NCBI GenBank assembly: GCA_021537435.1
Contig: GCA_021537435.1_3050.1
Origin: a phage
Direction: 5' to 3' (one strand)
DNA length: 64,000 nucleotides
Both the position numbers and the translations under genes were made by a program. Shown here in pieces: positions 1 through 21,040 of this stretch (position 1 is the first letter of the stretch; every line of letters begins with the position of its first letter). The notes below the pieces were generated by a model, which was not told where the DNA came from, searched no databases, and saw only the letters and a list, made by a program, of their open reading frames with translations.

Positions 1-81
1 ATCTTTATTCTTTTCAAGAATTGCTTGCTTCTGCTTAGTTGAACCAATAGATGCTATTTCGTTCAGAATTTTAAGAATCAT
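1..81 (-). CDS. 30: DNA ligase gp30, N-terminal fragment (gene runs off the window start)
   Basis: Reverse complement of 1..81 translates MILKILNEIASIGSTKQKQAILEKNKD, matching the recalled N-terminus of T4 DNA ligase; ATG at 79..81. Confidence 0.8.
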   Translation of the reverse strand, partial: MILKILNEIASIGSTKQKQAILEKNKD

Positions 82-347
82 TGTTCATCCTTTAGAGTTT
101 GGTTTACAGCTCTATTATAAATCAATTCATCATTAAGCTCAGTCAAAGACTTGTGGTACGTGGTTCTAACTTTATTTCCTTGCATCCAGTGCTTGACGTA
201 AATGAAACCTTGCTCTACACATTTTTTAAAAATTCGTTCGTCTTTTTGAGCTCGAAATTCTGGATTGCATCTAAAAAATTGATTTACGTGACCGTAATCA
301 CGTGTAGTATTACCTTCATTTTCATAAATAGTGTGAACGACAAACAT
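78..347 (-). CDS. hypothetical protein (30.1-like position)
   Basis: ORF-track 89 aa; start overlaps upstream stop; same strand as flanking early genes. Confidence 0.5.
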   Translation of the reverse strand: MFVVHTIYENEGNTTRDYGHVNQFFRCNPEFRAQKDERIFKKCVEQGFIYVKHWMQGNKVRTTYHKSLTELNDELIYNRAVNQTLKDEQ

Positions 348-1183
348 TAGAATGCTCCTTGGAAAATATTATCACCACTAGTAGGTCTATTATACAAATA
401 CTCTATGCCACCGGGTTTAATATAGTTCCATGTCTGAAACGGATGCGTCTGATATGGATGATATAGATTATAAGGATTAAATCCAGGAGTTCTCCAGGTA
501 GTGTTCCAAGGAAAAGAATCGTTTTTAATCATCTTCTCAATTACATCTTTTATAACTTTTTCACTATCAAAACTTTCTTTATTTTCCTTCGATGGAAAAA
601 GCTTATTCTCTACATCATTCCATGTATAAACTCGCTGCGCAGTTTTTGGAATATTGTCACGCTCTCCTCGAGCCATCCAATAAACAGGAACATTTAATAT
701 TTCACTCGCGTGATCGCAGTGGTGAGCGAGATCGTCAATATAACAAATTACGTTATATTTCTCTTTTGCCTTTTTGAACAACTCTTCTTTTGAAGAATCA
801 TGACCACACATCAATACTTCTGAGAAGGCACCAGGAAAAAGAGCATTCAAATTAAATTGACGATTTAGCAGAGCGTCAATAGAATCACCCAATGCTGTAA
901 CAGCTACAAAATTATAATCTTCTTTTAATTTGTTAATTACACACAGGGCATCTTTATACGGAGACAAGTAACGAATAAAATCTGAACGATTGTATTTTTC
1001 AATTAACTTGACACCAAGTTCTTCATCGCAATTAAAGAGCTTACCAGGAGAAATAAATTTTTCGTCCTGAATCATTTTTAAAATATGTTCCAACGGAAGA
1101 TTATATTTTTGGGCAAAATAAGGAAGACCTGATTGCCAGCTTAAACACACCCCGTCAATATCAGTCAAAATAGTAGGCTTCAT
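347..1183 (-). CDS. HAD-superfamily hydrolase-like protein (30.2-like position)
   Basis: 278 aa; N-terminal LTDIDGV resembles HAD motif I. Confidence 0.55.
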   Translation of the reverse strand: MKPTILTDIDGVCLSWQSGLPYFAQKYNLPLEHILKMIQDEKFISPGKLFNCDEELGVKLIEKYNRSDFIRYLSPYKDALCVINKLKEDYNFVAVTALGDSIDALLNRQFNLNALFPGAFSEVLMCGHDSSKEELFKKAKEKYNVICYIDDLAHHCDHASEILNVPVYWMARGERDNIPKTAQRVYTWNDVENKLFPSKENKESFDSEKVIKDVIEKMIKNDSFPWNTTWRTPGFNPYNLYHPYQTHPFQTWNYIKPGGIEYLYNRPTSGDNIFQGAF

Positions 1184-1644
1184 AGAGAGTCTCTTAATAG
1201 GTTTAACACATCAATAAATTCAGCTTCGGTTAGTATTGTATCATCTTTTGTTAGACCACTAGCCATGCTATGCTTCAAAACTTTTCCTTTCGAGGCTAGT
1301 AATGCATCACGAAAGCCCTTGTTTTGAATCGCTGCTTCAAAATATGCATTTGTGTACAACTCTTTCCACGCAGGTGAGTATCTTGAAAACGGAACTCCAA
1401 GCCAGAAGAGGGTCCCACGGTCCTGAGCTCTAGCATAAGACCTTCCAGCTTGTTGGGCGGCAAGCCCGGATAACCCAAATACACGACGTTGCTGTTCAAC
1501 ATTTTTCACCTTACATCCTTGGAGAAATCCTTCAAGACCTCCAAATTGGATACCATCCATAACAAAAGGCCATTGGGCGAAATTACTTAATGCACACGAT
1601 GGCCATCTAAAATTGCTTCTAATCTCTAACTCAGGCATTTTCAA
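1180..1644 (-). CDS. NADAR / YbiA-like (DUF1768) domain protein (30.3-like position)
   Basis: 154 aa; LSNFAQWPFVMDG segment resembles E. coli YbiA FSNFAAWPIKVDG. Confidence 0.55.
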   Translation of the reverse strand: MKMPELEIRSNFRWPSCALSNFAQWPFVMDGIQFGGLEGFLQGCKVKNVEQQRRVFGLSGLAAQQAGRSYARAQDRGTLFWLGVPFSRYSPAWKELYTNAYFEAAIQNKGFRDALLASKGKVLKHSMASGLTKDDTILTEAEFIDVLNLLRDSL

Positions 1645-1837
1645 TACTTATAATTTCAACATCAGCCCAATGACCATAGCAAGGAAGACGAAATTCAACT
1701 GGCCAGTTAGGGTCCTTTTCTAATATAATAGACTCAACTCGTGGTTCTTCATGTTCATCAGTATATGGATTTTTATCTGTTACTTTATATGTGACCTTAA
1801 TGTACTGAATTCCAAAAATCTTATTAATTATATTCAT
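1631..1837 (-). CDS. hypothetical protein
   Basis: ORF-track 68 aa, overlapping-stop packing. Confidence 0.4.
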   Translation of the reverse strand: MNIINKIFGIQYIKVTYKVTDKNPYTDEHEEPRVESIILEKDPNWPVEFRLPCYGHWADVEIISIENA

Positions 1838-2031
1838 ACTAATTCCTTTAATCCGTAAATAGGAGATAATTCATCACCCATGCGAAGGTCTTCATTTCCA
1901 TCTACCCAGGAAACAATATAAGCCTCTTTTATTTGAATACCACTCCATTTAAATGGAGGTAGAACCTTAGAAATTAATCCAGGTATACCAACTCCCTTTA
2001 ATTCAACAGTTTGACCTAAAAAGAATTTCAT
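1834..2031 (-). CDS. hypothetical protein
   Basis: ORF-track 65 aa. Confidence 0.4.
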   Translation of the reverse strand: MKFFLGQTVELKGVGIPGLISKVLPPFKWSGIQIKEAYIVSWVDGNEDLRMGDELSPIYGLKELV

Positions 2032-2318
2032 TAGAACCTCATCTGAAAGCCGTGTGATTTAACATTACCGCCGCCAATATCAGAAATATTAATTTCACGC
2101 GCAATTGAAGGGTCAATGTCAATTTCACGATTAAGTTTAGCGATAGCTAAAGTATCACGCCCATTTACTGTACGGAATTCTAAAGGACAAACCACATCAA
2201 CATAATTTTTAATCGATTCACTGGTAGGTTGCAAATGAGCAGGAAGGTCTTTAGGCGCCTTAGAGAAAACAACTTCACAGAAATTTTTGCGGGTATCAAA
2301 ATAAGTAGTCATAAACAT
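2031..2318 (-). CDS. hypothetical protein (start trimmed to MFMTTYFD)
   Basis: ORF-track 2031..2369; internal ATG at 2316..2318 is preceded by GAGGAAAA SD. Confidence 0.45.
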   Translation of the reverse strand: MFMTTYFDTRKNFCEVVFSKAPKDLPAHLQPTSESIKNYVDVVCPLEFRTVNGRDTLAIAKLNREIDIDPSIAREINISDIGGGNVKSHGFQMRF

Positions 2319-2358
2319 AGTATTTTCCTCAGTAAGGGGCCGAAGCCCCTGTTTTATT

Positions 2359-2724
2359 TTAAATATCAAATTCGTTAAGAACTACATCAAAGATTGCTTC
2401 AAGATGCTCAGGTTTAGCTCTGTTACTCAAAATATGACGAATCCAAGTTTTAACCAGAAGCTTACGATTAGCGCCATTCCAGCAAGGATGGGTCCCTAAA
2501 TCGCGTTGACGAAAATCATCATCCAGAGCGATTTTGAAGTTTGAACCTTCCATTGTGATTGAAACCGTGATGCCATTTTCAAATCGCATATAAACGTAGT
2601 TAGGAGTCATATACTGTTCAATTTCGCATACTGATCCATTTTGATGTTTCCAAAGGCAAATAGTATCAATAGAACCTGCAATACCATTAGAAACATATTT
2701 ACGTTCAAAGTTGATGTAGTTCAT
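2359..2724 (-). CDS. hypothetical protein
   Basis: ORF-track 121 aa; early promoter upstream. Confidence 0.5.
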   Translation of the reverse strand: MNYINFERKYVSNGIAGSIDTICLWKHQNGSVCEIEQYMTPNYVYMRFENGITVSITMEGSNFKIALDDDFRQRDLGTHPCWNGANRKLLVKTWIRHILSNRAKPEHLEAIFDVVLNEFDI

Positions 2725-2757
2725 TTTTATTCTCCGAGATGTTTAATTGCGGTACAG

Positions 2758-2790
2758 GTATATAATATCATATCCTGTACCAAAGTAAAC
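2758..2790 (-). promoter_or_regulatory. T4-type early promoter
   Basis: Minus strand GTTTACT -35 and A/T-rich -10 at about 17 nt. Confidence 0.45.
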
Positions 2791-2792
2791 AA

Positions 2793-3125
2793 TTATTTTA
2801 CTACTTTCCAGTGCTTCATGTCAAGTTTACCAACTTTTTTCATCTTCTCAATCAAACGTTCGGCACGTTGGCGAGCTGTAACATAATACCATTCGCCTAA
2901 TTCATTTTGTTCAATTTTTCCAACGATTACTGTATTCAATTCATAAATCCAACCAGTAAAGAAATTATGAACTTGAATTGTAAAGGTGAAATCTGTTCCC
3001 ATACCTTCTGTTGTTTCTACTTCAATAATATCACCTTCAACTGCCATTAAGAACCACATAGTTTCATCATATTTACCATTGAAGCATTTAGTCTTAACTG
3101 CAGCGTTCAGATTAATCGTTTTCAT
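2793..3125 (-). CDS. hypothetical protein
   Basis: ORF-track 110 aa; early promoter upstream. Confidence 0.5.
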   Translation of the reverse strand: MKTINLNAAVKTKCFNGKYDETMWFLMAVEGDIIEVETTEGMGTDFTFTIQVHNFFTGWIYELNTVIVGKIEQNELGEWYYVTARQRAERLIEKMKKVGKLDMKHWKVVK

Positions 3126-3149
3126 TTTATTCTCCTTTGTTTGTGTAAG

Positions 3150-3182
3150 ATAATACTATCACAAAGGAACCATACTGTAAAC
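3150..3182 (-). promoter_or_regulatory. T4-type early promoter
   Basis: Minus strand GTTTACA -35, -10-like element at about 17 nt. Confidence 0.4.
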
Positions 3183-3200
3183 AACTTTATGCAATCTTTG

Positions 3201-3232
3201 GAAAATAAAAAAGGACTCCCGAAGGAGTCCTT
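3201..3232 (-). terminator. intrinsic terminator
   Basis: Minus strand AGGACUCC-UUCG-GGAGUCCU followed by UUUUUAUUUU. Confidence 0.7.
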
Positions 3233-3235
3233 AAC

Positions 3236-3412
3236 TTATGCTTTCTGCTTACCAAAACGAGAAGCATCATCTCGAAGAACCGCACGTGCTCGGCGCATGA
3301 TCTTCTCAACAGTTTGATTGATACGAGAGTTCGACCCACGCTTGTAGCCAGCGCGTTTAGAATCACCAACTTTCTTTTCAACTGCTTTCTTTGCTTTAGC
3401 TTGTTTTGCCAT
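3236..3412 (-). CDS. small basic protein (30.9-like position)
   Basis: MAKQAKAKKAVEKK..., 58 aa from ATG 3410..3412; terminator hairpin follows. Confidence 0.45.
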   Translation of the reverse strand: MAKQAKAKKAVEKKVGDSKRAGYKRGSNSRINQTVEKIMRRARAVLRDDASRFGKQKA

Positions 3413-3655
3413 TATAAATTCTCTTTTAAATGAAAATGCAGGACTTATTGGCATTGCCTGCGCAAGCCCTCAAGGGGAACATAGGTTTTGGATATTTAAC
3501 GACAGGATAACCATAAACCCGTCATCATTCACATTCAAGAGGTACACCATAAAACTGCCGGGGTCTTAAAACTATAATGATTCGCAAATCATTAATCAGA
3601 CAGTTCGATGGCTCCTCGATTTTAGCTCACACTAAGGCAGTGAATCTCCAATAAA

Positions 3656-3904
3656 TTACTTCAGTGTTACCACAAAGTGACGAACTGCTTTTCGTGCAGC
3701 AGAAGCCAGAGGCTTAGCATACTTAAGTTCATCTTTTTCCTGAAGCTCAGCAGCTAATGCAGTTTGAGCAGGATTCAGATGTTTGAAATAACGCAGGATT
3801 TCAAGAGCTTCGGCTTCAACATCAATAGATGCGCCATAGTTTTCGTGACCATTATTCCATGCGTTTCGTTGCAGTTCAAGAGCGTGTTGTAATTGTTTAA
3901 TCAT
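3656..3904 (-). CDS. rIII: rIII lysis-inhibition accessory protein
   Basis: 82 aa, same size and position (between gene 30 block and gene 31) as T4 rIII. Confidence 0.75.
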   Translation of the reverse strand: MIKQLQHALELQRNAWNNGHENYGASIDVEAEALEILRYFKHLNPAQTALAAELQEKDELKYAKPLASAARKAVRHFVVTLK

Positions 3905-4042
3905 TTAAAAATTCTCGTTAGAGATTAAAACTCGGTAGTCACGTTCTTCTGATTTCATCTTCTTTCGACAGATCTCTCAGTTGTAGACTACCACATAGAA
4001 TTGTTCGGTTAACTTATTATTCCGACACCCAATTCATATTAT

Positions 4043-4050
4043 TATTTATA
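4043..4050 (-). promoter_or_regulatory. candidate late promoter TATAAATA upstream of rIII
   Basis: Minus-strand TATAAATA about 140 nt upstream of the rIII ATG. Confidence 0.35.
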
Positions 4051-4386
4051 TCACTTATAAAGACACGGAATAGCTTTATAGTGACAAGTAACGAATTTTT
4101 GTTTAATTTCTTTTGGCTGCTTAAGACCCAGAGCTACAAAAGGATGCGGAACATTTCGAATTTGACCAACTGGAAGAGAAGTCAAATCACCAACTTCGCA
4201 GAAACCTTCAGGAACATCAGGACCGACAGAGTGAACTACACATAGTTCAGGAACTTCACCTTGAACACGTTTACCGATAATAAGTCCTGATTCTGTAACT
4301 TCTTCATCACCGGCTTGTGCAGGTTCAGAAACTAAAATAACATATTCACCGACAGCACGAATTGGTAGCTGTTGTACTTCAGACAT
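4051..4386 (-). CDS. 31: gp31 co-chaperonin (GroES analogue)
   Basis: 111 aa, matches recalled T4 gp31 size, sequence and position. Confidence 0.85.
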
Positions 4387-4442
4387 CGTTTTTCCTTTTT
4401 GTTAACAGATGAATTAATAATAACAAATAATTCTTAAAGCAT

Positions 4443-4751
4443 TTATTTACCAATAAATTGGAGTAAATGCTCAACTTTCATACCATTAACAGAAATCAAT
4501 TTGTCAATAGAAAAACCTCGCCATGCACCAAGTTCAACATCAAATACTGGAATCATGTCAGTAGATTCTTTCCGAGTCGATTCAGTCAATTTACCAGTTT
4601 GCATGGTTGGCATAAAGTCTGCGTCACGAGTACCTTTCATAGTACGAATAGTACCATCAGACTTTTCAAAAACTACGTTTGAAACACCCATGGACAGTTT
4701 AGTTTTCAAAATTTCACGAATTGCTACTTTCTGCTCAGTTGTTAGTTTCAT
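4443..4751 (-). CDS. hypothetical protein (31.1-like)
   Basis: ORF-track 102 aa. Confidence 0.5.
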   Translation of the reverse strand: MKLTTEQKVAIREILKTKLSMGVSNVVFEKSDGTIRTMKGTRDADFMPTMQTGKLTESTRKESTDMIPVFDVELGAWRGFSIDKLISVNGMKVEHLLQFIGK

Positions 4752-4988
4752 TTATTTACCTATCACAGTTTTAATATGAGTTGTTCCACGTTCTTTAAGG
4801 GTGGAAAGTAATTTTTGGCATTTTTCTAAATCAGATTTCCAACTATATGGTCTATCAATACTAGTCCAATCAGTTTTATAATACTGTTTCCATTTAGAGA
4901 AAAAATATTTCTTATACTCTACAGCAAATGAGATGTTCTCGTTAGAATAAGAACTAATTGCTGTGAGCTTTACCAAACGAAATTTCAT
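4752..4988 (-). CDS. hypothetical protein (31.2-like)
   Basis: ORF-track 78 aa. Confidence 0.45.
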   Translation of the reverse strand: MKFRLVKLTAISSYSNENISFAVEYKKYFFSKWKQYYKTDWTSIDRPYSWKSDLEKCQKLLSTLKERGTTHIKTVIGK

Positions 4989-5569
4989 TATTCACCACAG
5001 AATTCGTTGATATTTTCCCAGTTTAACTTATTCAAGTTTTTCTTAGGAACATTAAACACTTCAATACCTGCATTTCGCAGAATATCATCCCAGCCAGGTT
5101 TATTTTTATCGTATGTTTCACAATAAACCAGCTTTTTAATACCAGATTGAGCTATCGCTTTTGCGCAATCTGGACAGGGAGAAAGTGTTACATACATAGT
5201 AGCACCTTCAATAGAAGAACCATTTCGTGCAGCAAACAAAATTGCATTTAGTTCAGCATGAATTTCATTTTTAGACGACCATTCAGAGTGAGCGCTACGG
5301 TGTTCTTTCGCCAAGATAAAACGATCAGTTGAACCAAACGATACACATTCAGGCTTATGACCTTGAATGATAGTATGTTTAGGTTTATTCAACAACCAAC
5401 CTTGCTCGGCAGCATAATCGCAGCAGTTCACACCCCCGGCAGGTGAACCATTATATCCGGTAGAAATAATACGTCCATTCTTTTCAATTACTGCTCCTAC
5501 TTTCCAGGAGCAACATTTTGATTCTTGTGATACTAAATATGCAATTTGAAGTACTGTACTCGCTTTCAT
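4988..5569 (-). CDS. cd: dCMP deaminase
   Basis: 193 aa; cytidine/dCMP deaminase zinc motifs HAE and PCxxC. Confidence 0.9.
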   Translation of the reverse strand: MKASTVLQIAYLVSQESKCCSWKVGAVIEKNGRIISTGYNGSPAGGVNCCDYAAEQGWLLNKPKHTIIQGHKPECVSFGSTDRFILAKEHRSAHSEWSSKNEIHAELNAILFAARNGSSIEGATMYVTLSPCPDCAKAIAQSGIKKLVYCETYDKNKPGWDDILRNAGIEVFNVPKKNLNKLNWENINEFCGE

Positions 5570-5904
5570 TTCATAATCACCAGATAAGCAGATTTAGCAG
5601 TTTCAACACGATAAATTTCGTGACGAAGTTTAGTTATACTTTTAATAACAGAACTAATTATATTCTGCCCATCTTTAAAGCGGTTTTTCTTATCAATAAA
5701 AATTGCACCAGCCATCTTTTTGTGAAGCTCAACTGGATACTTCGTCACAATAATAGCATCATACACAGAAGGATGAATACTATTCACTAGAGTATCATTC
5801 ATTAAAGTTATTCTAATGAACTGTGCTGTTTCAGAGTCAAGCGCTCTATGATCGCCAGTATCATTTTCAAGACAATTATCAATTATATCAGTTAAATTCA
5901 TCAT
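5566..5904 (-). CDS. hypothetical protein
   Basis: ORF-track 112 aa. Confidence 0.45.
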   Translation of the reverse strand: MMNLTDIIDNCLENDTGDHRALDSETAQFIRITLMNDTLVNSIHPSVYDAIIVTKYPVELHKKMAGAIFIDKKNRFKDGQNIISSVIKSITKLRHEIYRVETAKSAYLVIMK

Positions 5905-6137
5905 AGTACGCCATACACCCTTTGTGCTTCAACTAATCCATCAAAATCCAGTTTAAGATGCGATATTTGATCGCCATCACCTGGATTCACAATTACTAAT
6001 ACTGAACGAGGAGTTTCGGTAATAACACGAACCGATGTTTCAGGAAATCGTTCAGAAACCTTATTTACCAATTCCTGCGCAAATAGTTTAACTTTTTCTT
6101 GGAATTCTTTAACAGTAATTGGTTTTTCACTTAGCAT
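5901..6137 (-). CDS. hypothetical protein
   Basis: ORF-track 78 aa; early promoter upstream. Confidence 0.45.
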   Translation of the reverse strand: MLSEKPITVKEFQEKVKLFAQELVNKVSERFPETSVRVITETPRSVLVIVNPGDGDQISHLKLDFDGLVEAQRVYGVL

Positions 6138-6164
6138 TTTGTTTTCCTCATTTGTTTTGGTAGA

Positions 6165-6197
6165 GCTATAATATCACAACTCTACCATAAAGTAAAC
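6165..6197 (-). promoter_or_regulatory. T4-type early promoter
   Basis: Minus strand GTTTACT, 17 nt, TGTGATATTAT. Confidence 0.5.
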
Positions 6198-6199
6198 TG

Positions 6200-6505
6200 T
6201 TAAATTGCCTTGAATTCTGATGTCTGTGATTCAAAACGAATATCGCCTTTGATGACTAGCTCAGCATCAAGACCAAATACGACAATGATATGCGCGGAAC
6301 CTGGATACAACGTAATGGCAATAGAATCCACCTGGTCTGGAAGCAAAGTGTTCAATACATGAGTCACTTGAGCATGGATTCGAAGCTCGGCTGCGTTATC
6401 AAGCTTTTCAAACATATTATTAGCGATAATTTGACTAAACACTACTTCTACGATTTTAGAATAAGTCGGAAACATATTTACCTCACATAATTTTCTTCGA
6501 GCCAA
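6200..6505 (-). CDS. hypothetical protein
   Basis: ORF-track 101 aa. Confidence 0.45.
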   Translation of the reverse strand: MARRKLCEVNMFPTYSKIVEVVFSQIIANNMFEKLDNAAELRIHAQVTHVLNTLLPDQVDSIAITLYPGSAHIIVVFGLDAELVIKGDIRFESQTSEFKAI

Positions 6506-6537
6506 TTAATAATCCCAAGTTTCATGATGCCACGCCA

Positions 6538-7666
<1,129 letters not shown>

Positions 7667-7676
<10 letters not shown>

Positions 7677-7966
7677 TTATCCTCTTTTAACTCTTGGCGA
7701 TAATAACATATCATAGTTTTCTGATCATGTACATATCGTTTTACATCATTAAGCCAAATACGAAATTCCTGGGAATCTTCGAATGGCATACCGACCCAAG
7801 CTTTACCATCAATAACTTTAACTTGCCAGGATAGTTTAGCTTCATCATATGACTTTATTTGTACTGGCCAATTAGGATGAACTGTTTCTTTCTTTACTTC
7901 TAGAGGCTTTGTCGAACAACCAACTAGAAGACCAATAGATAATATTACTGCTGATAGTTTAATCAT
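7667..7966 (-). CDS. putative lipoprotein
   Basis: N-terminal signal peptide ending in lipobox LVGC. Confidence 0.5.
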
Positions 7967-8316
7967 TTAGAAAGGTCCTGGATGTCTTCTGCGAACTTGT
8001 TGAAGGAGTTGTTGATTTGTTTTTCAACCAATCCTGGCTTATGAGCCACCACATCCGCCTTCTTTGCGTCTTTGCGCAGTTTTTCATTTTCACGCTCAAT
8101 AGCAGCAATTGCCTCACGATTTTTATTATTCATCGCATCAATATAATTATACTGAATTCGCAAATTATTTAATGCTAAAGCGTTTTCATTGGCCGTTTTT
8201 GTAATTTCTACAACAGACGTTTCTAATCTTTCAATTTTATTTTTTAAAATTAAAGAAGTTCCGCCCAATGCAATTACAATTAATAGCAAGCCTGCTGTCG
8301 TATTACTTAATTGCAT
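7963..8316 (-). CDS. membrane-anchored hypothetical protein
   Basis: N-terminal hydrophobic helix then charged coiled-coil-like region. Confidence 0.45.
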   Translation of the reverse strand: MQLSNTTAGLLLIVIALGGTSLILKNKIERLETSVVEITKTANENALALNNLRIQYNYIDAMNNKNREAIAAIERENEKLRKDAKKADVVAHKPGLVEKQINNSFNKFAEDIQDLSK

Positions 8317-8813
8317 AAAGTTTTAATAACCTCTATAATATCGTCTTGAGAAAGACCGTTAATTAAAATATGATGTTCAGCAGGAGATTTAGAAATTTTA
8401 AAACATGCCTCAACATCTTCTGCCATATCCGATGCGCTACGATTTGGATTACTAATTCCAAGACGATGTTTTCCCGTTAAAGGATTAACGATGATATAGC
8501 ATTTACAGTTGTTAATATGAACATTAGGTTGAGTCTGATTAATGAACACATCGCAATCATATTTCGCAAGCTGATTTTCTAAAAAGACTTTCATCTCCTC
8601 AACTGCATCAGGAAGCATATCACGGGCTTGCTCAAGACGACGATTTCGATATTCTTTAATGGTCGTTTTCCGCTTGACTTGTTTAGCTAAATCTTTCTTA
8701 AGATCGGTGATATATCCAACTCGACGATTTCCTTTAAATACAGAAATCCCATCTGTAGTATCACCATATGCTTCAACGACCATCTCAGTAGTAATAAGCT
8801 GCAAATCCATCAT
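8307..8813 (-). CDS. alc: Alc (host transcription unfolding/termination protein) candidate
   Basis: 168 aa; size and position between pseT block and rnlA as in T4. Confidence 0.6.
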   Translation of the reverse strand: MMDLQLITTEMVVEAYGDTTDGISVFKGNRRVGYITDLKKDLAKQVKRKTTIKEYRNRRLEQARDMLPDAVEEMKVFLENQLAKYDCDVFINQTQPNVHINNCKCYIIVNPLTGKHRLGISNPNRSASDMAEDVEACFKISKSPAEHHILINGLSQDDIIEVIKTLCN

Positions 8814-8839
8814 AAAGTCCTCATGTTATGTCAGTAAGA

Positions 8840-8872
8840 CTACTGTAACACAACACGAGGGACTTGTAAACA
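8840..8872 (-). promoter_or_regulatory. T4-type early promoter upstream of alc
   Basis: Minus strand GTTTACA, 17 nt, TACAGT. Confidence 0.45.
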
Positions 8873-8874
8873 GC

Positions 8875-10462
<1,588 letters not shown>

Positions 10463-10489
10463 AATAAAATGGGCCTTGTGGCCCACTCC

Positions 10490-10992
10490 TTAAAAATATT
10501 TTTTAAAACTCATCATAACTTTATCATCAACATCATTATCAATCTGTGCTACAAGGTAAGATGACAGTTCTACTTCTTGTGGCGCGGATTGAACATTATC
10601 AGAATTAAGATATTCACGAATCCAAGGATACGGATGTTTAACCGGAGCATCAGTAATTGGGCATGGAAGACCGCACTGTTTCATACGAGATACAGTTAAG
10701 TAATCAATAAAGCTCCACATGCTATTTGTATTTAATCCAGGAACATCGCCATCTTTAAATAAATGAACTGCCCAGTCTTTTTCTTGACGGTTAACTTCCA
10801 TGAAAATATCAACTGCTTCTTGTTCACACTCTTGAGCAATTTTAACCCATTCATCGCCATCAGTACCAGATTGAAGTTGACGAATAATATATTGGGTGCC
10901 TTTAAGGTGAAGCTGTTCATCGCGTGCAATGAACTTCATAATCTTGGCATTACCTTCCATGATTTCCATGTTTTTATGGAAGTTGAAAGTAC
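10490..10992 (-). CDS. nrdB: ribonucleotide reductase small subunit, exon 2
   Basis: Joined to exon 1 gives ...FYVSFA-C-TFNFHKNMEIMEGNAK..., colinear with E. coli NrdB; total 388 aa. Confidence 0.85.
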
Positions 10993-11128
10993 CGTTATGT
11001 TCGATTGAGCTCGCTAATTCTCAATCCGTTCTCTTATGAACTGCTACATATTACTATGCAGACCAGACTATATCACAATCCCAGAGGGATTCTCCCCATT
11101 TCGAGTCGCTTGACCCTACGTCCGAAGA

Positions 11129-11938
11129 CTAGTCGTTGAACCTTGCTTTGCAATTGTCGCCGTGCCATCGTTTATATGTTGATGGTGATAAATCTTTCTT
11201 ATCACAATATGGACAATTCAATTGAATTCTATTTGGATTTAATTTACATCTGTCATTATGTTTTAGATAAAATCCAGGACCTTTACCAATGTGACCACAG
11301 AAATCACATGTGATTTCTTTTTGTGCAGGATGGGTCCCGTTCTTAACCATTTCTAATGTTTTTGCTGATGTTCTTTTCTTATGGTCTTCTGATAAGAAAT
11401 GATGTGAACCGTCATTTACCCGTTTTGATTGAGTTTCTGACTGCATTTTACCACCGCAAAATACATGAGTACCTTCTTTTATAGCTGCAATATTACGTTC
11501 TTTAACTTTTGCAATATGCTCAGCTTGTTGAAAATTATGTATACCTAATGCAACTCTATTTAAATTAGATTTACGCTGTATTTCACCATCTAAAAGATGA
11601 AATGTACCATTTTCTATCTTAGATTTAATAGAGGCAATATTTTTAGCTCGTACTTCAGGGATATTAAAAATCTGGATTTCTCTAGATTTTGCGGCTTTAG
11701 AAGCTAATTCAGAAATTTCTTCAGGAGAATATTTCATTCTAAGCTTTATAGCATGACAAGCCTGGTAATCTTTTTGAGCTAAATGTATATCATAATGTTC
11801 CTGTATAGAAAGGCACATCAAATTATCTAAATCATTATTTTCACGGTTACCGTCTTTATGATGGATTTCGTATGTTCTTCCATCAGAATCTTTAGGTATA
11901 GGTCCGTTAGCATCTATCCAAATTTTTCTATAGTTCAA
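11129..11938 (-). CDS. I-TevIII: intron-encoded HNH homing endonuclease, full length (TTG start in ORF track)
   Basis: 269 aa inside nrdB intron; EIHHKDGNRENNDLDNL HNH motif and C-terminal CxxC pairs. Confidence 0.8.
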   Translation of the reverse strand: MNYRKIWIDANGPIPKDSDGRTYEIHHKDGNRENNDLDNLMCLSIQEHYDIHLAQKDYQACHAIKLRMKYSPEEISELASKAAKSREIQIFNIPEVRAKNIASIKSKIENGTFHLLDGEIQRKSNLNRVALGIHNFQQAEHIAKVKERNIAAIKEGTHVFCGGKMQSETQSKRVNDGSHHFLSEDHKKRTSAKTLEMVKNGTHPAQKEITCDFCGHIGKGPGFYLKHNDRCKLNPNRIQLNCPYCDKKDLSPSTYKRWHGDNCKARFND

Positions 11939-11965
11939 TTGTGCATCCTCTTAAAAGTATAATCA

Positions 11966-11973
11966 TATTTATA
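11966..11973 (-). promoter_or_regulatory. late promoter TATAAATA inside nrdB intron, upstream of I-TevIII
   Basis: Minus-strand TATAAATA about 28 nt before the ORF start; TTTGCTTGC MotA-box-like element just upstream. Confidence 0.55.
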
Positions 11974-12082
11974 TTATACTAATTAAAGGTGCAAGCAAAA
12001 CCTTGGCTGCTAGTTTTCCATAAAGGACTTTCCAGCAATTAAAGGAGTTTTCGATAAACGTTACCGTTTAAAGGCGCATTTT

Positions 12083-12746
12083 ACGCAAAAGATACATAAA
12101 AACGAATAGCTTCCAATGCGTTGATTACATGGAGGCAAAGGTAAAGAGATTTCATCAGATCTCGTTTAGCTCTTTGCTCAACGTCTTTATCAGCTAGAAT
12201 TAGACCTTGGTCTTTATAATATTCAACCATGTCTTTAGCATTTTCCCATTCACGGGTTTTAACCAAGACATCATCATAATAGCGACCGATAGATTCAGCA
12301 CGTTTCATGATAGCTTCATCTAATACAATCTCATCAAATACCTTTGATGGATCAGTATAAAGATTTCGCATGATATGAGTATATGAACGACTGTGAATAG
12401 TTTCACTAAAAGTCCATGTAGCAACCCATGTATCAAGGCTTGGGTCTGAAATTAATGACATAAGTACAGCAGATGGCGCACGACCCTGAATGCTATCCAA
12501 AAGTGATTGATACTTCAGGTTATTAGTAAAAATATTCTGCTGATACTGAGGAAGTTTATTAAATTGTGCAGCATCCATCATCAAGTTTACTTCTTCAGGA
12601 CGCCAGAAAAATGATAATTGCTTTTCAGTCAAATCTTCAAAAACTTTATGGCGTTGAATATCATAACGCGCAATACCAAGACCTGAACCGAAGAACATAG
12701 GTTCTTTTAAAACATCAACTGGATTTGTATTAAAAACTGTAGACAT
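12083..12746 (-). CDS. nrdB: ribonucleotide reductase small subunit, exon 1
   Basis: Colinear with E. coli NrdB (LKEPMFFG ... HSRSYTHI ... AIRFYVSFA); intron splits the following Cys codon after its first U. Confidence 0.85.
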
Positions 12747-12780
12747 ATTATTCTCGCTTATTATAGGTTTAAATATTTAA

Positions 12781-13572
12781 TCACATATTATGTATAAGCA
12801 CTTCGGTCTGAAATGATGCACCCTTCTTTTGCTTCCTATACATGGTTTCAAAATATTCAATTTTGAAATTATTAGAAAGGGCCCAATCTTTTAAAATATA
12901 ATTATTAATATCGTCTGATAGATTATTAGTGATAATAAATTTAGACTTCGATTGTTTAATTTTGTCTAATAATTCTAATTCATCCTTTTCTTCCCAGCCT
13001 GAATATTTAAATTTAGTAGAAAGATACGGCGGGTCAATGAATAAATTTTTGTTTTCAAAATCCAAATCTCTGAATGATTTATTACTAAATGTAAATCGGT
13101 GCTGTCTATTTTTAAATTCAGAAAATTTATCCTGCTGAGACTTATTAAAAGAAGTTCTGGAATACTTGGCTCTATTGGCGAAAGCCGCGTTATAATTCCC
13201 ATTACTAGAAAATCGGATTAACGAACTGAATGAAAATAAATGTAGAACATAAAGATATAATCCGTTTTTGGTTTTATCGTATTCTTTTGACAGATTATAA
13301 AAAGGTGCTGAATCTTTGTCATTCAAATTAAAATCTTCAATAATTTTAACTATATCATTAATTGAAGATGATTTCATCTTTTTATACATGTCTATAAGAG
13401 GAGTATTAATATCATTACATATAACATCTCTCTGACAATTCATAGAAAATCCAAGACCACCACAAAAAGCATCCAAAACAGGCTTATCGTCAAAGCGGTT
13501 TGAAAATTGTCTAATAAATGGCATATACTTATGTTTTGCACCTGGATATGTTATGGCAGGTAGGTCTTTCAT
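12781..13572 (-). CDS. Dam-family (D12 class) DNA N6-adenine methyltransferase, divergent
   Basis: 263 aa; motif I FCGGLG, motif IV DPPY, N-terminal YPGAK; by-eye alignment with recalled T4 and E. coli Dam. Confidence 0.8.
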   Translation of the reverse strand: MKDLPAITYPGAKHKYMPFIRQFSNRFDDKPVLDAFCGGLGFSMNCQRDVICNDINTPLIDMYKKMKSSSINDIVKIIEDFNLNDKDSAPFYNLSKEYDKTKNGLYLYVLHLFSFSSLIRFSSNGNYNAAFANRAKYSRTSFNKSQQDKFSEFKNRQHRFTFSNKSFRDLDFENKNLFIDPPYLSTKFKYSGWEEKDELELLDKIKQSKSKFIITNNLSDDINNYILKDWALSNNFKIEYFETMYRKQKKGASFQTEVLIHNM

Positions 13573-13615
13573 ATTATTTCTCGTTGTTGGTGACTCGTCC
13601 GTGAGTCAAATTATA

Positions 13616-15880
13616 TCATAATTTACAGGATGAACAATCTTCAGCTTTTGGAGTTTCTATTTCATAATCATCAGTACCAGAACCATCACGGGTATTATGA
13701 TAATAGAAATTTTTTCCGCCAAAATACCAAAAGTACAAAAGGTCATCAATCATTACAGACATTGGAACCTTTCCTTTTGGAAAAATCTGCGGGTCATAAT
13801 ATGTATTTGCTGAAGCTGATTGACATACCCATTTAAGCATAATAGCTACCTGCGTAAGATAAGGTTTATTACCTTTCTTAGCTAATTTCCATGTATAATC
13901 ATATAGGTCTATGTTATGTTCAATATTGGGCACGACTTGATTAAAGGAACCCTCTTTTGATTCTTTAACCGAGACTGGTCCACGTGGAGGCTCGATACCG
14001 TTTGTACTGTTAGAAACTTGGGAAGATGACTCACATGGCATAAGTGCTGATAATGTGCTATTACGGATGCCAAAGAGCTTAAGGTCTTCCCGCAGCGACG
14101 ACCAGTCACAAACGTATTTTGGAGCTGCGATTTGGTCAATCTTTTTATTGTACCAGTCGATAGGTAGTTCGCCTCGAGACCAACGAGTGTCTGAATAATA
14201 TTCGCAAGGTCCTTTTTCTTTGGCGAGCTTAATGGATGCTTTAATGAGTCCATACTGTAATCTCTCAAATAGTTCATGTGTTAAATCGTTAGCATCTTCA
14301 TAAGAAGCAAAGTTACTTGCCAGCCAAGCTGCATAGTTAGTAACACCTACACCAAGGTTACGACGCTTTTTAGCTTTTTCTGCTTCAGGAACTGGATATC
14401 CTTGGTAATCCAAAAGATTATCAAGAGCACGAACTTGAACTTCTGCCAATTCATTAATTTTATCTTGGTCTTGCCAATCGAAGTTATCCAACACAAATGC
14501 AGATAACGTACACAATCCAATTTCAGCATCAGGGCTATTCACATCATTTGTTGGAATAGCAATTTCACAGCATAAGTTACTCTGACGAATAGGTGCCTTT
14601 TCACGAATAAACGGAGTATAGTTATTCGTATTATCAATGAACTGTACATAAATCCTTGCTGTTCCTGAACGTTCAGTCATGAGCAATTCAAATAGTTCAC
14701 GGGCTTTAATACGCTTTTTACGAATATTAGGGTCTTTTTCTGCCGCTTCGTATAATTCACGGAAACGGTCTTGGTCTTTAAAATAAGAATAATAAAGCTC
14801 TCCACCCATTTCATGGGGACTGAACAAAGTAATGTAATCGTTCTTTCCAAAACGTTCCATCATCAAATCATTCAGTTGAACACCATAATCCATATGACGA
14901 ATGCGGTTTTCTTCTACGCCTTTGTTATTTTTCAAAACGAGAAGATTTTCAACTTCCAAATGCCAAATAGGATAATAAGCAGTAGCAGCGCCGCCACGAA
15001 TTCCACCCTGTGAACATGATTTAACTGCAGTCTGAAAATGTTTCCAAAAAGGAATAACACCGGTATGGCGTACTTCACCCATGCCAATCTTAGAACCTTC
15101 GGCACGAATCATACCAACGTTAATACCAATTCCAGCACGTTTGGAGATATATTCAACAATTGAAGCGGAAGCCTTATTGATAGACTTCAATGAATCTCCT
15201 GCCTCAATAACAACACATGAACTAAACTGTCGAGTCGGAGTACGGCAACCAGCCATAATAGGAGTTGGCAATGAAATCTGTCGAGTAGATACTGCTTCAT
15301 AAAAACGGATAACATGTTTTAATCTATCAACAGGTTCGTCTTGATGCAATGCCATTCCAATAGCCATAAATGCAAACTGTGGAGTTTCATAAATTTGACC
15401 AGTGGTTTTATCTTTAACTAAATATTTTTCTTTTAATTGCATCGCCCCGGAATAAGTAAATTCCATATCCCGCTCGTGCTTAATTTTTGATTCTAAAAAT
15501 GTAATTTCTTCTGCTGAATATTTTGACAACAATTCAGGGTCGTATTTACCTTCATTTACACAGTAAGAAATATGGTCAATAAATGAACGTGGTTCATACT
15601 GCCTGTAAACATGCTTACGAAGAGCGAACATTAAGCAGCGTGCAGCTACATATTGGTAATCAGGCTCTTCAACTGAAATAGAATTCGCAGCAGCCTTAAT
15701 GACAATAGTCTGAATATCATCAGTTGTCATTCCATCACGGAGATAAGATTTAATATTTTCATATAATTCATAAGGATCTACTGATGTTCCCTCAGCTGCC
15801 CAAGATAAAACTTTAATAATTTTTTGTGGGTCAAAGCTCTGAGAAACACCACTACTTTTGATAACATTAATTAATTGCAT
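13616..15880 (-). CDS. nrdA: ribonucleotide reductase large subunit
   Basis: 754 aa, class Ia RNR alpha subunit with ATP-cone N-terminus. Confidence 0.95.
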   Translation of the reverse strand: MQLINVIKSSGVSQSFDPQKIIKVLSWAAEGTSVDPYELYENIKSYLRDGMTTDDIQTIVIKAAANSISVEEPDYQYVAARCLMFALRKHVYRQYEPRSFIDHISYCVNEGKYDPELLSKYSAEEITFLESKIKHERDMEFTYSGAMQLKEKYLVKDKTTGQIYETPQFAFMAIGMALHQDEPVDRLKHVIRFYEAVSTRQISLPTPIMAGCRTPTRQFSSCVVIEAGDSLKSINKASASIVEYISKRAGIGINVGMIRAEGSKIGMGEVRHTGVIPFWKHFQTAVKSCSQGGIRGGAATAYYPIWHLEVENLLVLKNNKGVEENRIRHMDYGVQLNDLMMERFGKNDYITLFSPHEMGGELYYSYFKDQDRFRELYEAAEKDPNIRKKRIKARELFELLMTERSGTARIYVQFIDNTNNYTPFIREKAPIRQSNLCCEIAIPTNDVNSPDAEIGLCTLSAFVLDNFDWQDQDKINELAEVQVRALDNLLDYQGYPVPEAEKAKKRRNLGVGVTNYAAWLASNFASYEDANDLTHELFERLQYGLIKASIKLAKEKGPCEYYSDTRWSRGELPIDWYNKKIDQIAAPKYVCDWSSLREDLKLFGIRNSTLSALMPCESSSQVSNSTNGIEPPRGPVSVKESKEGSFNQVVPNIEHNIDLYDYTWKLAKKGNKPYLTQVAIMLKWVCQSASANTYYDPQIFPKGKVPMSVMIDDLLYFWYFGGKNFYYHNTRDGSGTDDYEIETPKAEDCSSCKL

Positions 15881-16197
15881 AAGTCCTCAACTTGAAAATC
15901 GTCTTTAAACAATCGGTTAACTATATGAGCTATTATATCACCATGACACGGCTTTGGTTTACATGTGCATCCTAGCCTCATTCCACGTAAAGGCTCTAAA
16001 TGTGCTTTAGTTATTTCTCCGGATTTAATTCGACGTATAAAATCTTTTTTGAATAATTCAATGGCAGCCTCCCGGCTGCCAGCATCTTTACCGACGTAAT
16101 TTCCCCAAAATGTACCACGGTGAATATTAACATCAAAGTCGGATTTATATTTATTCACTACTTGGCATAGACGGCCCGCGCGGTGATAATTCGTCAT
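15871..16197 (-). CDS. hypothetical protein (nrdA.1-like)
   Basis: ORF-track 108 aa. Confidence 0.45.
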
Positions 16198-16414
16198 ATT
16201 GTTTTTCCGTTAAAACAGTAATATCATAATAACAATCTGAAGAAGTTTTAACCGTAGAAATTTTATTATCAAAATACTCACGAGTCATTTTATGAGTATA
16301 ATATTTTTTGCCATAAATGATAATAGGCTGATTTGGTCCTGGAACTTCTAACTCGCTTGGGTTAGGAAGTGTAAAAAGAACTACACCAGAAGTATCTTTA
16401 AATCGTAAAATCAT
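16151..16414 (-). CDS. hypothetical protein (nrdA.2-like)
   Basis: ORF-track 87 aa. Confidence 0.45.
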
Positions 16415-16437
16415 ATATCCTCACAATTAATAATTAA

Positions 16438-16749
16438 TTACACCGCCATTTTTCCTTTCAAGACGCCGTGGGACTGATAATCTTTGAGAACGAAATCTTT
16501 AGGCCTGAGTTTAAGAATGTATTCCAATTGTTCTTTAGTAGAAAGATAGCGGAATTTATAAGGCAATCCGCCTATTACCAGTTCACAAAGCTCTTTAGGT
16601 TCACGACGCAAAATTTCTTTACATTGTTCTACGTGATTCATATAGATATGAGTATTACCACCGGAAAATATCAAATCTCCCGGAATAAGATTACACATCT
16701 TAGCTACAATATGAACTAACGTAGCATATGATGCAATATTAAATGGAAG
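16438..16749 (-). CDS. td: thymidylate synthase, exon 2
   Basis: Exon 2 begins CUU CCA UUU (LPF) right after intron-terminal AUG; joined protein 286 aa. Confidence 0.9.
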   Translation of the reverse strand, partial: LPFNIASYATLVHIVAKMCNLIPGDLIFSGGNTHIYMNHVEQCKEILRREPKELCELVIGGLPYKFRYLSTKEQLEYILKLRPKDFVLKDYQSHGVLKGKMAV

Positions 16750-17765
16750 CATTATGTTCAGATAAGGTCGTTAATCTTACCCCGGAATTATATCCAGCTG
16801 CATGTCACCATGCAGATCAGACTATATCTCCAACTTGTTAAAGCAAGTTGTCTATCGTTTCGAGTCACTTGACCCTACTCCCCAAAGGGATAGTCGTTAG
16901 GCATTTATGTAGAACCAATTCCATTTATCAGATTTTACACGATAAGTAACTAATCCAGACGAAATTTTAAAATGTCTAGCTGCATCTGCTGCACAATCAA
17001 AAATAACCCCATCACATGAAATCTTTTTAATATTACTAGGCTTTTTACCTTTCATCTTTTCTGATATTTTAGATTTAGTTATGTCTGAATGCTTATGATT
17101 AAAGAATGAATTATTTTCACCTGAACGATTTCTGCATTTACTACAAGTATAAGCAGAAGTTTGTATGCGAACACCGCACTTACAAAACTTATGGGTTTCT
17201 GGATTCCAACGCCCGTTTTTACTTCCGGGTTTACTGTAAAGAGCTTTCCGACCATCAGGTCCAAGTTTAAGCATCTTAGCTTTAACAGTTTTAGAACGTT
17301 TCTTAATAATTTCTTCTTTTAATGGATGCGTAGAACATGTATCACCAAACGTTGCATCAGCAATATTGTATCCATTAATTTTAGAATTAAGCTCTTTAAT
17401 CCAAAAATTTTCTCGTTCAATAATCAAATCTTTCTCATATGGAATTTCTTCCAAAATAGAACATTCAAACACATTACCATGTTTGTTAAAAGACCTCTGA
17501 AGCTTTATAGAAGAATGGCATCCTTTTTCTAAATCTTTAAAATGCCTCTTCCATCTCTTTTCAAAATCTTTAGCACTTCCTACATATACTTTATTGTTTA
17601 AAGTATTTTTAATCTGATAAATTCCGCTTTTCATAAATACCTCTTTAAATATAGAAGTATTTATTAAAGGGCAGTCCTACAATTTAGCACGGGATTGTCT
17701 ACTAGAGAGGTTCCCCGTTTAGATAGATTACAAGTATAAGTCACCTTATACTCAGGCCTCAATTA
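16750..17765 (-). mobile_element. group I self-splicing intron in td (1016 nt)
   Basis: 5' end UAAUUGAGGCCUGAGUAUAAGGUG and 3' end ...CUGAACAUAAUG match the recalled T4 td intron. Confidence 0.9.
16897..17634 (-). CDS. I-TevI: intron-encoded GIY-YIG homing endonuclease
   Basis: 245 aa, MKSGIYQIKNTLNNKVYVGSAKDFEKRWKRH..., matches recalled T4 I-TevI. Confidence 0.9.
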   Translation of the reverse strand: MKSGIYQIKNTLNNKVYVGSAKDFEKRWKRHFKDLEKGCHSSIKLQRSFNKHGNVFECSILEEIPYEKDLIIERENFWIKELNSKINGYNIADATFGDTCSTHPLKEEIIKKRSKTVKAKMLKLGPDGRKALYSKPGSKNGRWNPETHKFCKCGVRIQTSAYTCSKCRNRSGENNSFFNHKHSDITKSKISEKMKGKKPSNIKKISCDGVIFDCAADAARHFKISSGLVTYRVKSDKWNWFYINA

Positions 17766-18314
17766 ACCCAAGAAAACATCTACTGATCGTTGATACCACT
17801 GCAAATCCAAATAGCCATTACGCACATTAAACTGATAGAACATATGACAAGGCGGTAATGCCATATATTTAAGTTCAGCTGGATTCCACGCAGAAACAAT
17901 TTGTCGCCTATCATTCGGCAGTTTTTTAATACGATCAATAACTTCTATAATTTGGTCTACACCACCAAAATCACGCCATTGTTTTCCATAAATTGGACCA
18001 AGTTCACCGCTATGGTATCCTAAATCTTTTGCTTGATTTTCGTAATTTTCATCCCAGACTGTTTTGCCTTGAATTAATGAATCATGCTGAATTAATCGTA
18101 AATCATTGACATTCGTGCTTCCTGATAAAAACCATATTAACTCAGCAATGCAAGCTTTCCAAGCGAGCTTTTTAGTTGTTACTGCAGGAAAACCTTTGGT
18201 TAAATCCCAACGCAATTTAGTACCGAACAAAGCAATTGTTCCTGTGCCCGTTCGGTCATCGGTTTCATAGCCGTTTTCAAGAATGTCTTTAATTAAATCT
18301 TGGTATTGTTTCAT
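17766..18314 (-). CDS. td: thymidylate synthase, exon 1
   Basis: MKQYQDLIKDILENGYETDDRTGTGT... ends ...VDVFLG then intron. Confidence 0.9.
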
Positions 18315-18359
18315 TTAGTACCTTATATAAATTATAATACATTTTATGAAGCTAAATAA

Positions 18360-18719
18360 TCAATACGGTTTAGCATCAAATTTTCTCTCAATTTCAGGCG
18401 TGAAATATAATTCTTTACCGCGTTTGGAAAAGCGACCAATAATATGATAATTATTCTCATCAAACGTGATATTGCCGATATCCATAGCTTTCAACCAAAT
18501 ATCGATATTTCTATCCAACTTTATGTCAAAATTCCAATACGGAGAACTATTACCGAAAATACTGCAAGCGGATTCAGTAAAACAACTACTATAAATCTTG
18601 TCTTTAGGAACTACTAATTGATAGACGCCTTTAATAAACTGAGGACCCTGCCATTTTGGTTGTTTCGCGTCTTTTTCTAATAGAATAGGGTAATAATTAA
18701 AATTCATATTTTCCGCCAC
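18360..18719 (-). CDS. hypothetical protein inserted between frd and td
   Basis: ORF-track 119 aa; tightly packed between frd stop and td start. Confidence 0.5.
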   Translation of the reverse strand: MAENMNFNYYPILLEKDAKQPKWQGPQFIKGVYQLVVPKDKIYSSCFTESACSIFGNSSPYWNFDIKLDRNIDIWLKAMDIGNITFDENNYHIIGRFSKRGKELYFTPEIERKFDAKPY

Positions 18720-18727
18720 GTGTTATT

Positions 18728-19554
<827 letters not shown>

Positions 19555-19565
19555 TTTATCTCCTA

Positions 19566-19898
19566 TTAAAAAGGATCAGGAACATATCCACTAGCTTTAA
19601 TCATTTTAATTAATGTTACCATTCCTTTGTTAACTGCTTGTGAGATTTCATCAAAAACTTCATCATTAAAAAGTTCTAGCACACCCTTCTGAACTTTTAA
19701 TTTACAGCCAACAATTTCGTCATCGCCTATAGTAAATTCATTACCGCCAATTCCACCGAAAAACTTAATTACCCCAGTTAACTGTCTTCCACGAGAATAT
19801 GGGTCGTGCGATAAAGTAATATGAGTCACCCCAGGTACAGTTTTAAATTGGCAGCGGATGTTTACTTGAGCAATTCCAGTTACATGAATGTCAGACAT
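19566..19898 (-). CDS. hypothetical protein
   Basis: ORF-track 110 aa. Confidence 0.5.
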   Translation of the reverse strand: MSDIHVTGIAQVNIRCQFKTVPGVTHITLSHDPYSRGRQLTGVIKFFGGIGGNEFTIGDDEIVGCKLKVQKGVLELFNDEVFDEISQAVNKGMVTLIKMIKASGYVPDPF

Positions 19899-19908
19899 AA
19901 TATTTTCC

Positions 19909-20151
19909 TCAAACAGTCTTTTTCACAATTTTCCAATCATCTTTAAACTGTTCAACATCAGAATGGTAAATCCAGAATCCTGCGCTTTCTCCATCCTCGT
20001 AAAGAGGGCATCCATCACATTCATCTTCCCATCCCATGTCACGCAAAAGATGTTCAGCTTTTTTAACAAGTTCAGAATCTTTACCGATGATATTAAAATA
20101 CCATTTACCTCTAACTTCTGAATCTTTAATACTCTGGCGTTGTAATCTCAT
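19909..20151 (-). CDS. hypothetical protein
   Basis: ORF-track 80 aa; early promoter upstream. Confidence 0.45.
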   Translation of the reverse strand: MRLQRQSIKDSEVRGKWYFNIIGKDSELVKKAEHLLRDMGWEDECDGCPLYEDGESAGFWIYHSDVEQFKDDWKIVKKTV

Positions 20152-20257
20152 TTTATTCTCCTTAGCAAGCTTTAATCAAAAGATATAAACAGACCAACAT
20201 AACTATTGCCATAATATAAGGTGCGAACATTTTCTTTTCTCCATTAGTTTTGATAGG

Positions 20258-20290
20258 GTAATAGTATCACACTACTACCCTTTTGTAAAC
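20258..20290 (-). promoter_or_regulatory. T4-type early promoter
   Basis: Minus strand GTTTACA, about 17 nt, TGATACTAT. Confidence 0.5.
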
Positions 20291-20676: not shown

Positions 20677-20720
20677 TTTGATTTCCTCATTTTAATAGGG
20701 GCTTGATAGCCCCTTGATAA

Positions 20721-20947
20721 TTATTGTTCAATTAATACCATGTAAAATTCTGTGTCTTCAGAATCCATACCATCACAATATTCATTAGCCATAAAGCGGG
20801 TGAGGTCTTCAAGAGGACCTTCAATAACGATTTGAATACTCCAAAACTTAGAATCTTGCACGCTTGTGATACTAAGTTCAGGATAACGATTACGAATAAT
20901 TTCTTCGATATATTCAAAATCAACGATGTCAATATCAACTTTAGCCA
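20721..20947 (-). CDS. hypothetical protein (start trimmed to MAKVDIDIV)
   Basis: Internal ATG preceded by AGAGGAAAA SD; the ORF-track N-terminal extension runs into the promoter. Confidence 0.45.
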
Positions 20948-21020: not shown

Positions 21021-21040
21021 CAACTTTGTGAAAAAATTTT

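Follow-up and report, generated by a model that had tools for sequence, protein, structure and literature searches.

An intact gene 30.3 in a T4-like phage window, predicted to encode the NADAR-fold anti-DarTG1 enzyme AdfN

DarT1 links ADP-ribose to the amino group of guanine, and NADAR proteins hydrolyse that bond (Schuller et al. 2023). The DarTG1 resistance of phages T2 and T4 was mapped to gene 30.3 by means of recombinant phages, and the gene was renamed adfN (Johannesman et al., Nat Commun 2025, PMC11825919). Its product, gp30.3/AdfN, is necessary and sufficient for the resistance of T2 and T4 to DarTG1; T2 and T4 without adfN are unable to plaque on DarTG1 hosts, and ectopic AdfN rescues RB69 (PMC11825919). 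Among the T-even phages RB69 alone is sensitive to DarTG1, and a one-base T insertion in its gene removes the C-terminal helix of the protein (PMC11825919). The substitutions E36A and K43A and truncation of the C-terminus impair T4 AdfN, and the purified enzyme strips ADP-ribose from DarT1-modified DNA in vitro, which the E36A variant does not. No interaction between AdfN and DarT1 was detected by two-hybrid analysis, and AdfN has no effect on the thymine-modifying DarTG2 (PMC11825919).

The in vitro activity of T4 gp30.3 (NP_049816.1) was also determined in an independent laboratory, where guanine-ADPr was hydrolysed and thymine-ADPr was not (PMC11125620). The T4 gp30.3 construct is given in Methods 4.2 of that paper as "residues 1-208", which looks like a typing slip: gp30.3 has 152 amino acids, the accession in the supplement (NP_049816.1) is the 152-aa product of 30.3, and 208 is the length of gp61.2/AdfA. 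In a T4 transposon screen (HIDEN-SEQ, bioRxiv 10.1101/2025.11.20.689424), insertions in 30.3/adfN were lost specifically on DarTG1 hosts.

Catalysis by NADAR proteins involves a Glu followed seven positions later by a Lys (E88 and K95 in the E. coli C7 NADAR; E43 and K50 in PnNADAR) and a third, acidic residue on the last strand (PMC11125620, PMC11543638). At this third position, proteins of the YbiA family have Glu, the DarT1-linked NADARs have Asp and the phage gp30.3 proteins have His (PMC11125620, PMC11543638). DarG1 (BC4488 subfamily), which includes the Geobacter lovleyi NADAR (8bat) and the E. coli C7 NADAR, shares with AdfN the NADAR fold, the Glu-x6-Lys pair and the hydrolysis of guanine-ADP-ribose on DNA; its clade was reported to be the NADAR clade closest to the T4-type phage NADARs (PMC11825919). 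E. coli YbiA (2b3w; PF08719 NADAR/DUF1768) and AdfN are both stand-alone single-domain proteins of similar size with about 17% identity, but YbiA has a housekeeping role in the riboflavin pathway and belongs to a LexA-controlled operon, unlike AdfN.

Other anti-DarT factors have been described in phages. AdfN(Bas32) and AdfN(Bas60), from T5-like and Vequintavirinae phages, are orphan phage NADARs that act against DarTG1 and are specific for guanine adducts, as is T4-type AdfN. They fall into NADAR clades other than that of T4-type AdfN, reflect separate acquisitions and require no phage context, whereas the T4-type protein needs T-even infection for its full effect. AdfA (T4 gp61.2) and AdfM (T4 tk.4) are the other anti-DarT factors of T4-like phages; unlike AdfN, AdfA binds DarT1 and contains no enzymatic domain, and AdfM, a macrodomain, counters DarTG2, which modifies thymine.

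The window, which is the whole 64-kb stretch of phage DNA analysed here (1..64000), is 98-99% identical at the DNA level to many Tequatrovirus genomes and carries genes 30.1, 30.2, 30.4-30.9, rIII, 31 and cd in T4 order. The placement of the gene under study in the gene 30 to rIII block, proposed in a preliminary description, was correct, as the block is collinear with 30.1-30.2-30.3-30.4 ... rIII-31-cd of T4. The flanking genes match the Pfam families of T4 gp30.7 and gp30.8. The window as a whole spans 30.1, nrdA, the tail-fibre genes, rIIB/rIIA, dda and 61 as far as 41, crossing the conventional origin of the T4 map. Scans of the 64 kb for tRNA genes and for Rfam families (gathering threshold) were both negative.

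The gene itself was assigned the following features.

1180..1638, minus strand: coding sequence of adfN (T4 gene 30.3), made up of 152 codons and a TGA stop at 1180..1182
1639..1644, minus strand: in-frame TTG-AAA directly 5' of the ATG, the start chosen in the preliminary description
1631..1638, minus strand: ATGCCTGA, an 8-nt overlap shared by the end of 30.4 and the beginning of adfN (translational coupling), as in T4
1180..1183, minus strand: ATGA, a 4-nt overlap shared by the end of adfN and the beginning of 30.2 (translational coupling), as in T4

The open reading frame at 1180..1644 (minus strand) ends at 1180 and encodes 154 amino acids if it is counted from the TTG, as was done initially. 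The frame is real, but the length needs correction. Translation most likely starts at the ATG at 1638, giving 152 amino acids, and not at the TTG at 1644; the TTG-AAA at 1639..1644 is probably not translated. In the T4 annotation, gene 30.3 has 459 nt and encodes 152 amino acids from an ATG, and the published positions of E36 and K43 agree with the window protein only if residues are counted from the ATG at 1638. The coding sequence was set at 1180..1638 because both the T4 annotation and the published numbers fit this ATG. The homologs in a 42-sequence alignment start at or past the same position. An out-of-frame reading frame inside adfN (1296..1502, minus strand; 68 amino acids) is the equivalent of the internal T4 gene 30.3' (75 amino acids) and meets its stop earlier. 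The shorter equivalent weakly suggests that 30.3' is not under strong constraint.

Genes 30.7 to 30.1 overlap or abut, and two possible transcription signals were located by scanning the block.

2795..2824, minus strand: best sigma-70-like promoter match of the block, TTGACA-18-TAAAAT (11/12), upstream of 30.7
3232..3211: terminator-like hairpin

The site at 2795..2824 could be an early promoter for the string of genes from 30.7 to 30.1, including adfN. It is favoured only by its position and score, as the total of promoter-like sites in the region does not exceed the shuffled expectation, and the promoter and terminator scan is overall not above chance. Early expression of adfN in this phage would be expected.

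The window protein is identical to T4 gp30.3 at 148 of 152 positions (97%) and is 100% identical to a protein of Shigella phage ESh28. It matches the Pfam family PF08010 (Phage_30_3) with E = 3.7e-70 and 234.6 bits against a cut-off of 36, covering model positions 1-138 of 138. T4 AdfN (NP_049816.1) is encoded at the same locus by a gene of equal length, which overlaps 30.2 and 30.4 in the same way, and residues E36, K43 and H123 and the C-terminal helix are found in both proteins. The four substitutions that distinguish the window copy from it are S2P, I53V, Q114L and I125M.

Membership in the NADAR family had been proposed from the SNFAxWP...DG signature. The signature is present in the sequence and aligns with the corresponding YbiA motif.

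1552..1587, minus strand: NADAR N-terminal signature S-N-F-A-Q-W-P-F-V-M-D-G (codons S18-G29), aligning with YbiA SNFAAWPIKVDG

In the window protein the motif reads A-L-S18-N-F-A-Q-W-P24-F-V-M-D28-G29 and is followed by L-E-G-F-L-Q-G-C-K; in the family-profile alignment it lines up with F-S-N-F-A-A-W-P-I-K-V-D-G of YbiA. Residues S18, N19 and F20 are invariant in the 42-sequence alignment (42/42), and D28 and G29 are conserved in 38 and 40 of the 42 sequences, respectively.

The window protein has no match to PF08719, the NADAR model of Pfam, even with E-values up to 10 allowed. Neither AdfN nor gp30.2 matches any NCBIfam or PADLOC model, and a PDB search with the single AdfN sequence returned just a spurious weak hit to 3rjz (E = 0.3). 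Seven of the 42 family members, scanned singly, also match PF08719 (best E = 1.5e-7), and the two Pfam families are therefore linked by sequence. The 42-sequence profile has a sole match among PDB sequences, E. coli YbiA 2b3w (E = 0.003), which extends across the SNF...DG...E...K region. A search of 5.8 billion proteins yielded 114 relatives, all with PF08010 and one with both PF08010 and PF08719; several of them are named "YbiA (DUF1768 family)" by JGI.

An AlphaFold2 model built on the 42-sequence alignment reached a pLDDT of 94.2 and a pTM of 0.89, and displays the YbiA-like alpha+beta fold with a helical core and two small flanking sheets. The top three matches in a Foldseek search of the PDB were YbiA 2b3w (E = 4.3e-5, TM 0.69), the Phytophthora NADAR 8bau and the Geobacter NADAR 8bat, with probabilities of 0.98-1.00. 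These are the three solved NADAR structures; the fourth match had a probability of 0.08. By fold and catalytic residues, the window protein belongs to the gp30.3/AdfN family and to the NADAR superfamily. The family assignment made in the preliminary description thus stands on the fold, the motifs and catalytic residues, transitive sequence links and published structural and phylogenetic work, and not on a direct Pfam NADAR match. The lack of such a hit, which had been named as decisive against membership, is misleading as a criterion if applied naively, since membership is otherwise supported.

Three catalytic positions and the C-terminal helix were located on the window as follows.

1531..1533, minus strand: Glu36 (GAA), catalytic, conserved in 42/42; equivalent to E43 of PnNADAR and E88 of the E. 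coli C7 NADAR
1510..1512, minus strand: Lys43 (AAG), catalytic/ADP-ribose-binding, conserved in 41/42; equivalent to K50 of PnNADAR and K95 of the E. coli C7 NADAR
1270..1272, minus strand: His123 (CAT), the residue typical of phage gp30.3-type NADARs, conserved in 42/42; at the end of the last strand (E120-122) in the model
1183..1227, minus strand: C-terminal helix (codons 138-152), intact; modelled as helix H138-151; missing from the inactive RB69 allele

E36 and K43 align with the Glu and Lys of YbiA, which is the best PDB match to AdfN by structure and by sequence and shares with it the motifs SNFA-WP...DG...E...Q..K. This likeness, and the names "YbiA (DUF1768)" or "swarming motility YbiA-like" given to some AdfN relatives in databases, would fit a YbiA-type housekeeping N-glycosidase that clears reactive intermediates of the riboflavin pathway and does not repair DNA. 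That reading is hardly credible. The Glu on the last strand that defines YbiA, at the position of His123, is His in all 42 AdfN relatives, and the action of AdfN has been placed on ADP-ribosylated DNA by genetics and biochemistry (PMC11825919, PMC11125620). YbiA itself hydrolyses guanine-ADPr in vitro (PMC11125620), so a likeness to YbiA does not imply a role in the riboflavin pathway. An enzyme of the YbiA subfamily was ruled out by the His, found in 42/42, in place of the YbiA Glu.

A DarG1-type antitoxin was likewise ruled out. AdfN, an orphan, has no DarT gene beside it; its neighbours are 30.2 and 30.4, and none of the flanking proteins in the window matches an ADP-ribosyltransferase family. 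Compared with DarG1, it has no N-terminal DNA-binding extension, the SNF motif being preceded by 17 residues (it begins at residue 18 of 152), and its third catalytic residue is His instead of Asp. PADLOC returned no match, and AdfN cannot replace DarG1 in uninfected cells.

Truncated or fused 30.3 alleles are common in public data, and the RB69 copy is frameshifted, so that a decaying or inactive copy in the window had to be considered. The extra T of the RB69 record and the resulting TGA were confirmed by alignment; the window has no such insertion and matches T4. Its frame runs to full length with an undamaged C-terminal helix, no catalytic or invariant position has changed, and the gene still overlaps 30.4 at its start and 30.2 at its stop. 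None of the four differences from T4 lies at a conserved or catalytic position. I53V, Q114L and I125M, the three non-terminal substitutions, change to the commonest residue of the family, and S2P lies in the variable N-terminus. Decay of the window copy is accordingly very improbable; judged from its sequence, the allele is intact by every criterion applied. Its 97% identity and intact active-site residues allow it to be labelled adfN and predicted to be functional, and it would be expected to have the same activity as T4 AdfN.

Public 30.3 products include fragments of 86-126 amino acids and fusions with 30.7 (PF06919), 30.8 (PF06019) or DUF2883 domains (proteins P0007, P0014-P0017, P0074 and P0107). 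Deletions inside the 30.3-30.8 block therefore recur, and loss of AdfN as in RB69 may not be rare.

The window gene very probably encodes AdfN (anti-DarT factor NADAR, T4 gp30.3), a stand-alone ADP-ribosylglycohydrolase of NADAR fold that defeats DarTG1. The suggestion in the preliminary description that the protein is a plausible anti-defence enzyme against guanine ADP-ribosylation by DarT-type toxins has been borne out by experiment for the 97%-identical T4 protein (PMC11825919, PMC11125620, HIDEN-SEQ). The finding is not new, as the family, fold, catalytic residues, activity and role of that protein were published in 2023-2025.

According to the published mechanism, during infection of a DarTG1-carrying cell by a T4-like phage the toxin of this toxin-antitoxin defence, DarT1, places ADP-ribose on guanines of the phage DNA and blocks its replication. 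AdfN, made from the tightly packed string of genes between rIII and gene 30, hydrolyses the N-glycosidic bond between guanine and ribose, releasing ADP-ribose and restoring the base so that replication can proceed. Because AdfN does not bind DarT1, its target is the modification and not the toxin. Only guanine adducts are removed, and DarTG2, which modifies thymine, is not countered.

AdfN may have further or other substrates, such as ADP-ribose on RNA or protein (including the marks set by Alt, ModA and ModB, transferases of the phage itself) or soluble immune signals derived from ADP-ribose, with DarTG1 reversal as one role among several. In T4, some 3 kb separate gene 30.3 from alt, both being part of one leftward early region, and in a survey of NADARs (PMC9503650) those of T4-like phages were described as expressed early alongside ADP-ribosyltransferases, with soluble ADPr derivatives proposed as the main targets. 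Action against other ADP-ribosylating defences was suggested as a possibility in the AdfN paper itself (PMC11825919), and the spread of the AdfN family, with 1511 phage records from many host genera, may exceed the reach of DarTG1. Broader substrates are nevertheless considered unlikely: all reported AdfN phenotypes are specific to DarTG1, the activity in vitro is on guanine-ADPr and not on thymine-ADPr, and nothing in the sequence bears on other substrates.

T4 AdfN fails to rescue uninfected E. coli from DarT1, and phages T5 and Bas25 are rescued weakly by it (PMC11825919). For these reasons a T-even cofactor was proposed by the authors (PMC11825919), and the picture in which the enzyme alone is enough is incomplete. 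In an extended form of this proposal, T4-type AdfN depends on a T-even protein for its localisation, stability or activation, and AdfN may also act on adducts beyond DarT1-modified guanine in DNA; we regard this version as unlikely. The product of gene 30.2 was tested as a candidate cofactor because the gene is translationally coupled to adfN.

347..1183, minus strand: gene 30.2, translationally coupled to adfN

Gene 30.2 is annotated as hypothetical almost everywhere. Its product contains all four HAD-hydrolase motifs, namely D9-x-D11-G-V (DxDG[VI]), Thr96, Lys132 and D150-D151, the last three of which are invariant in an alignment of seven divergent orthologs, and a variable C-terminal tail. 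The match to the Pfam PNKP phosphatase domain is weak (E = 0.17), the best match of a gp30.2 profile among PDB sequences is a haloacid dehalogenase (E = 1.5), and the AlphaFold2 model from single-sequence input has a pLDDT of 38.6. The HAD assignment is thus a putative one, made from the motifs alone.

No support was obtained for gp30.2 as the AdfN cofactor. In two metagenomic phage lineages with distant AdfN homologs, the genes flanking these homologs do not resemble gp30.2. Among divergent T4-like phages, gp30.2 keeps its place directly upstream of DNA ligase, and 30.3 is either separated from it or missing at that site. The text of the HIDEN-SEQ paper names adfN as the sole DarTG1 gene and never mentions 30.2, which is a weak point against gp30.2. 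The conserved partner of gp30.2 appears to be DNA ligase, and this suggests that the two may act together, gp30.2 as an end-processing phosphatase.

The distant homologs of AdfN, at about 38% identity, come from large, phage-like contigs of metagenomic origin, which reach 308 kb in length (loci L004-L006, about 6001..6468, and L007-L009). Among the genes near them are those for a Nudix hydrolase, a Thg1-like protein, a GGDEF-domain protein and a ribose-phosphate pyrophosphokinase. Their neighbourhood is rich in nucleotide- and NAD-related functions, unlike that of T4.

T4 possesses a second anti-DarT1 factor, AdfA, the product of adfA (gene 61.2). T4 AdfA has 208 amino acids, and its gene lies between 61.1 and sp. 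The corresponding slot of the window contains a shorter frame.

60958..61314, minus strand: ORF of 118 amino acids in the adfA slot, 35% identical to T4 AdfA residues 109-208, with an identical C-terminal tail SIDDQIFNAFMNRG

A His at the position published as 164 was shown to enable the neutralisation of DarT1, and it is taken to be His165 of T4; the 118-aa ORF has a Cys at the position aligning with it. No full-length adfA was found elsewhere in the 64-kb window. Because the adfA-like gene is short and divergent, this phage probably relies on AdfN alone, and AdfN is probably its main, perhaps its only, anti-DarTG1 factor. The predicted phenotype is that the phage should plaque on hosts carrying DarTG1. 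The practical value of the finding is for annotation: most GenBank records of the gene still read "hypothetical protein", and the label adfN is safe.
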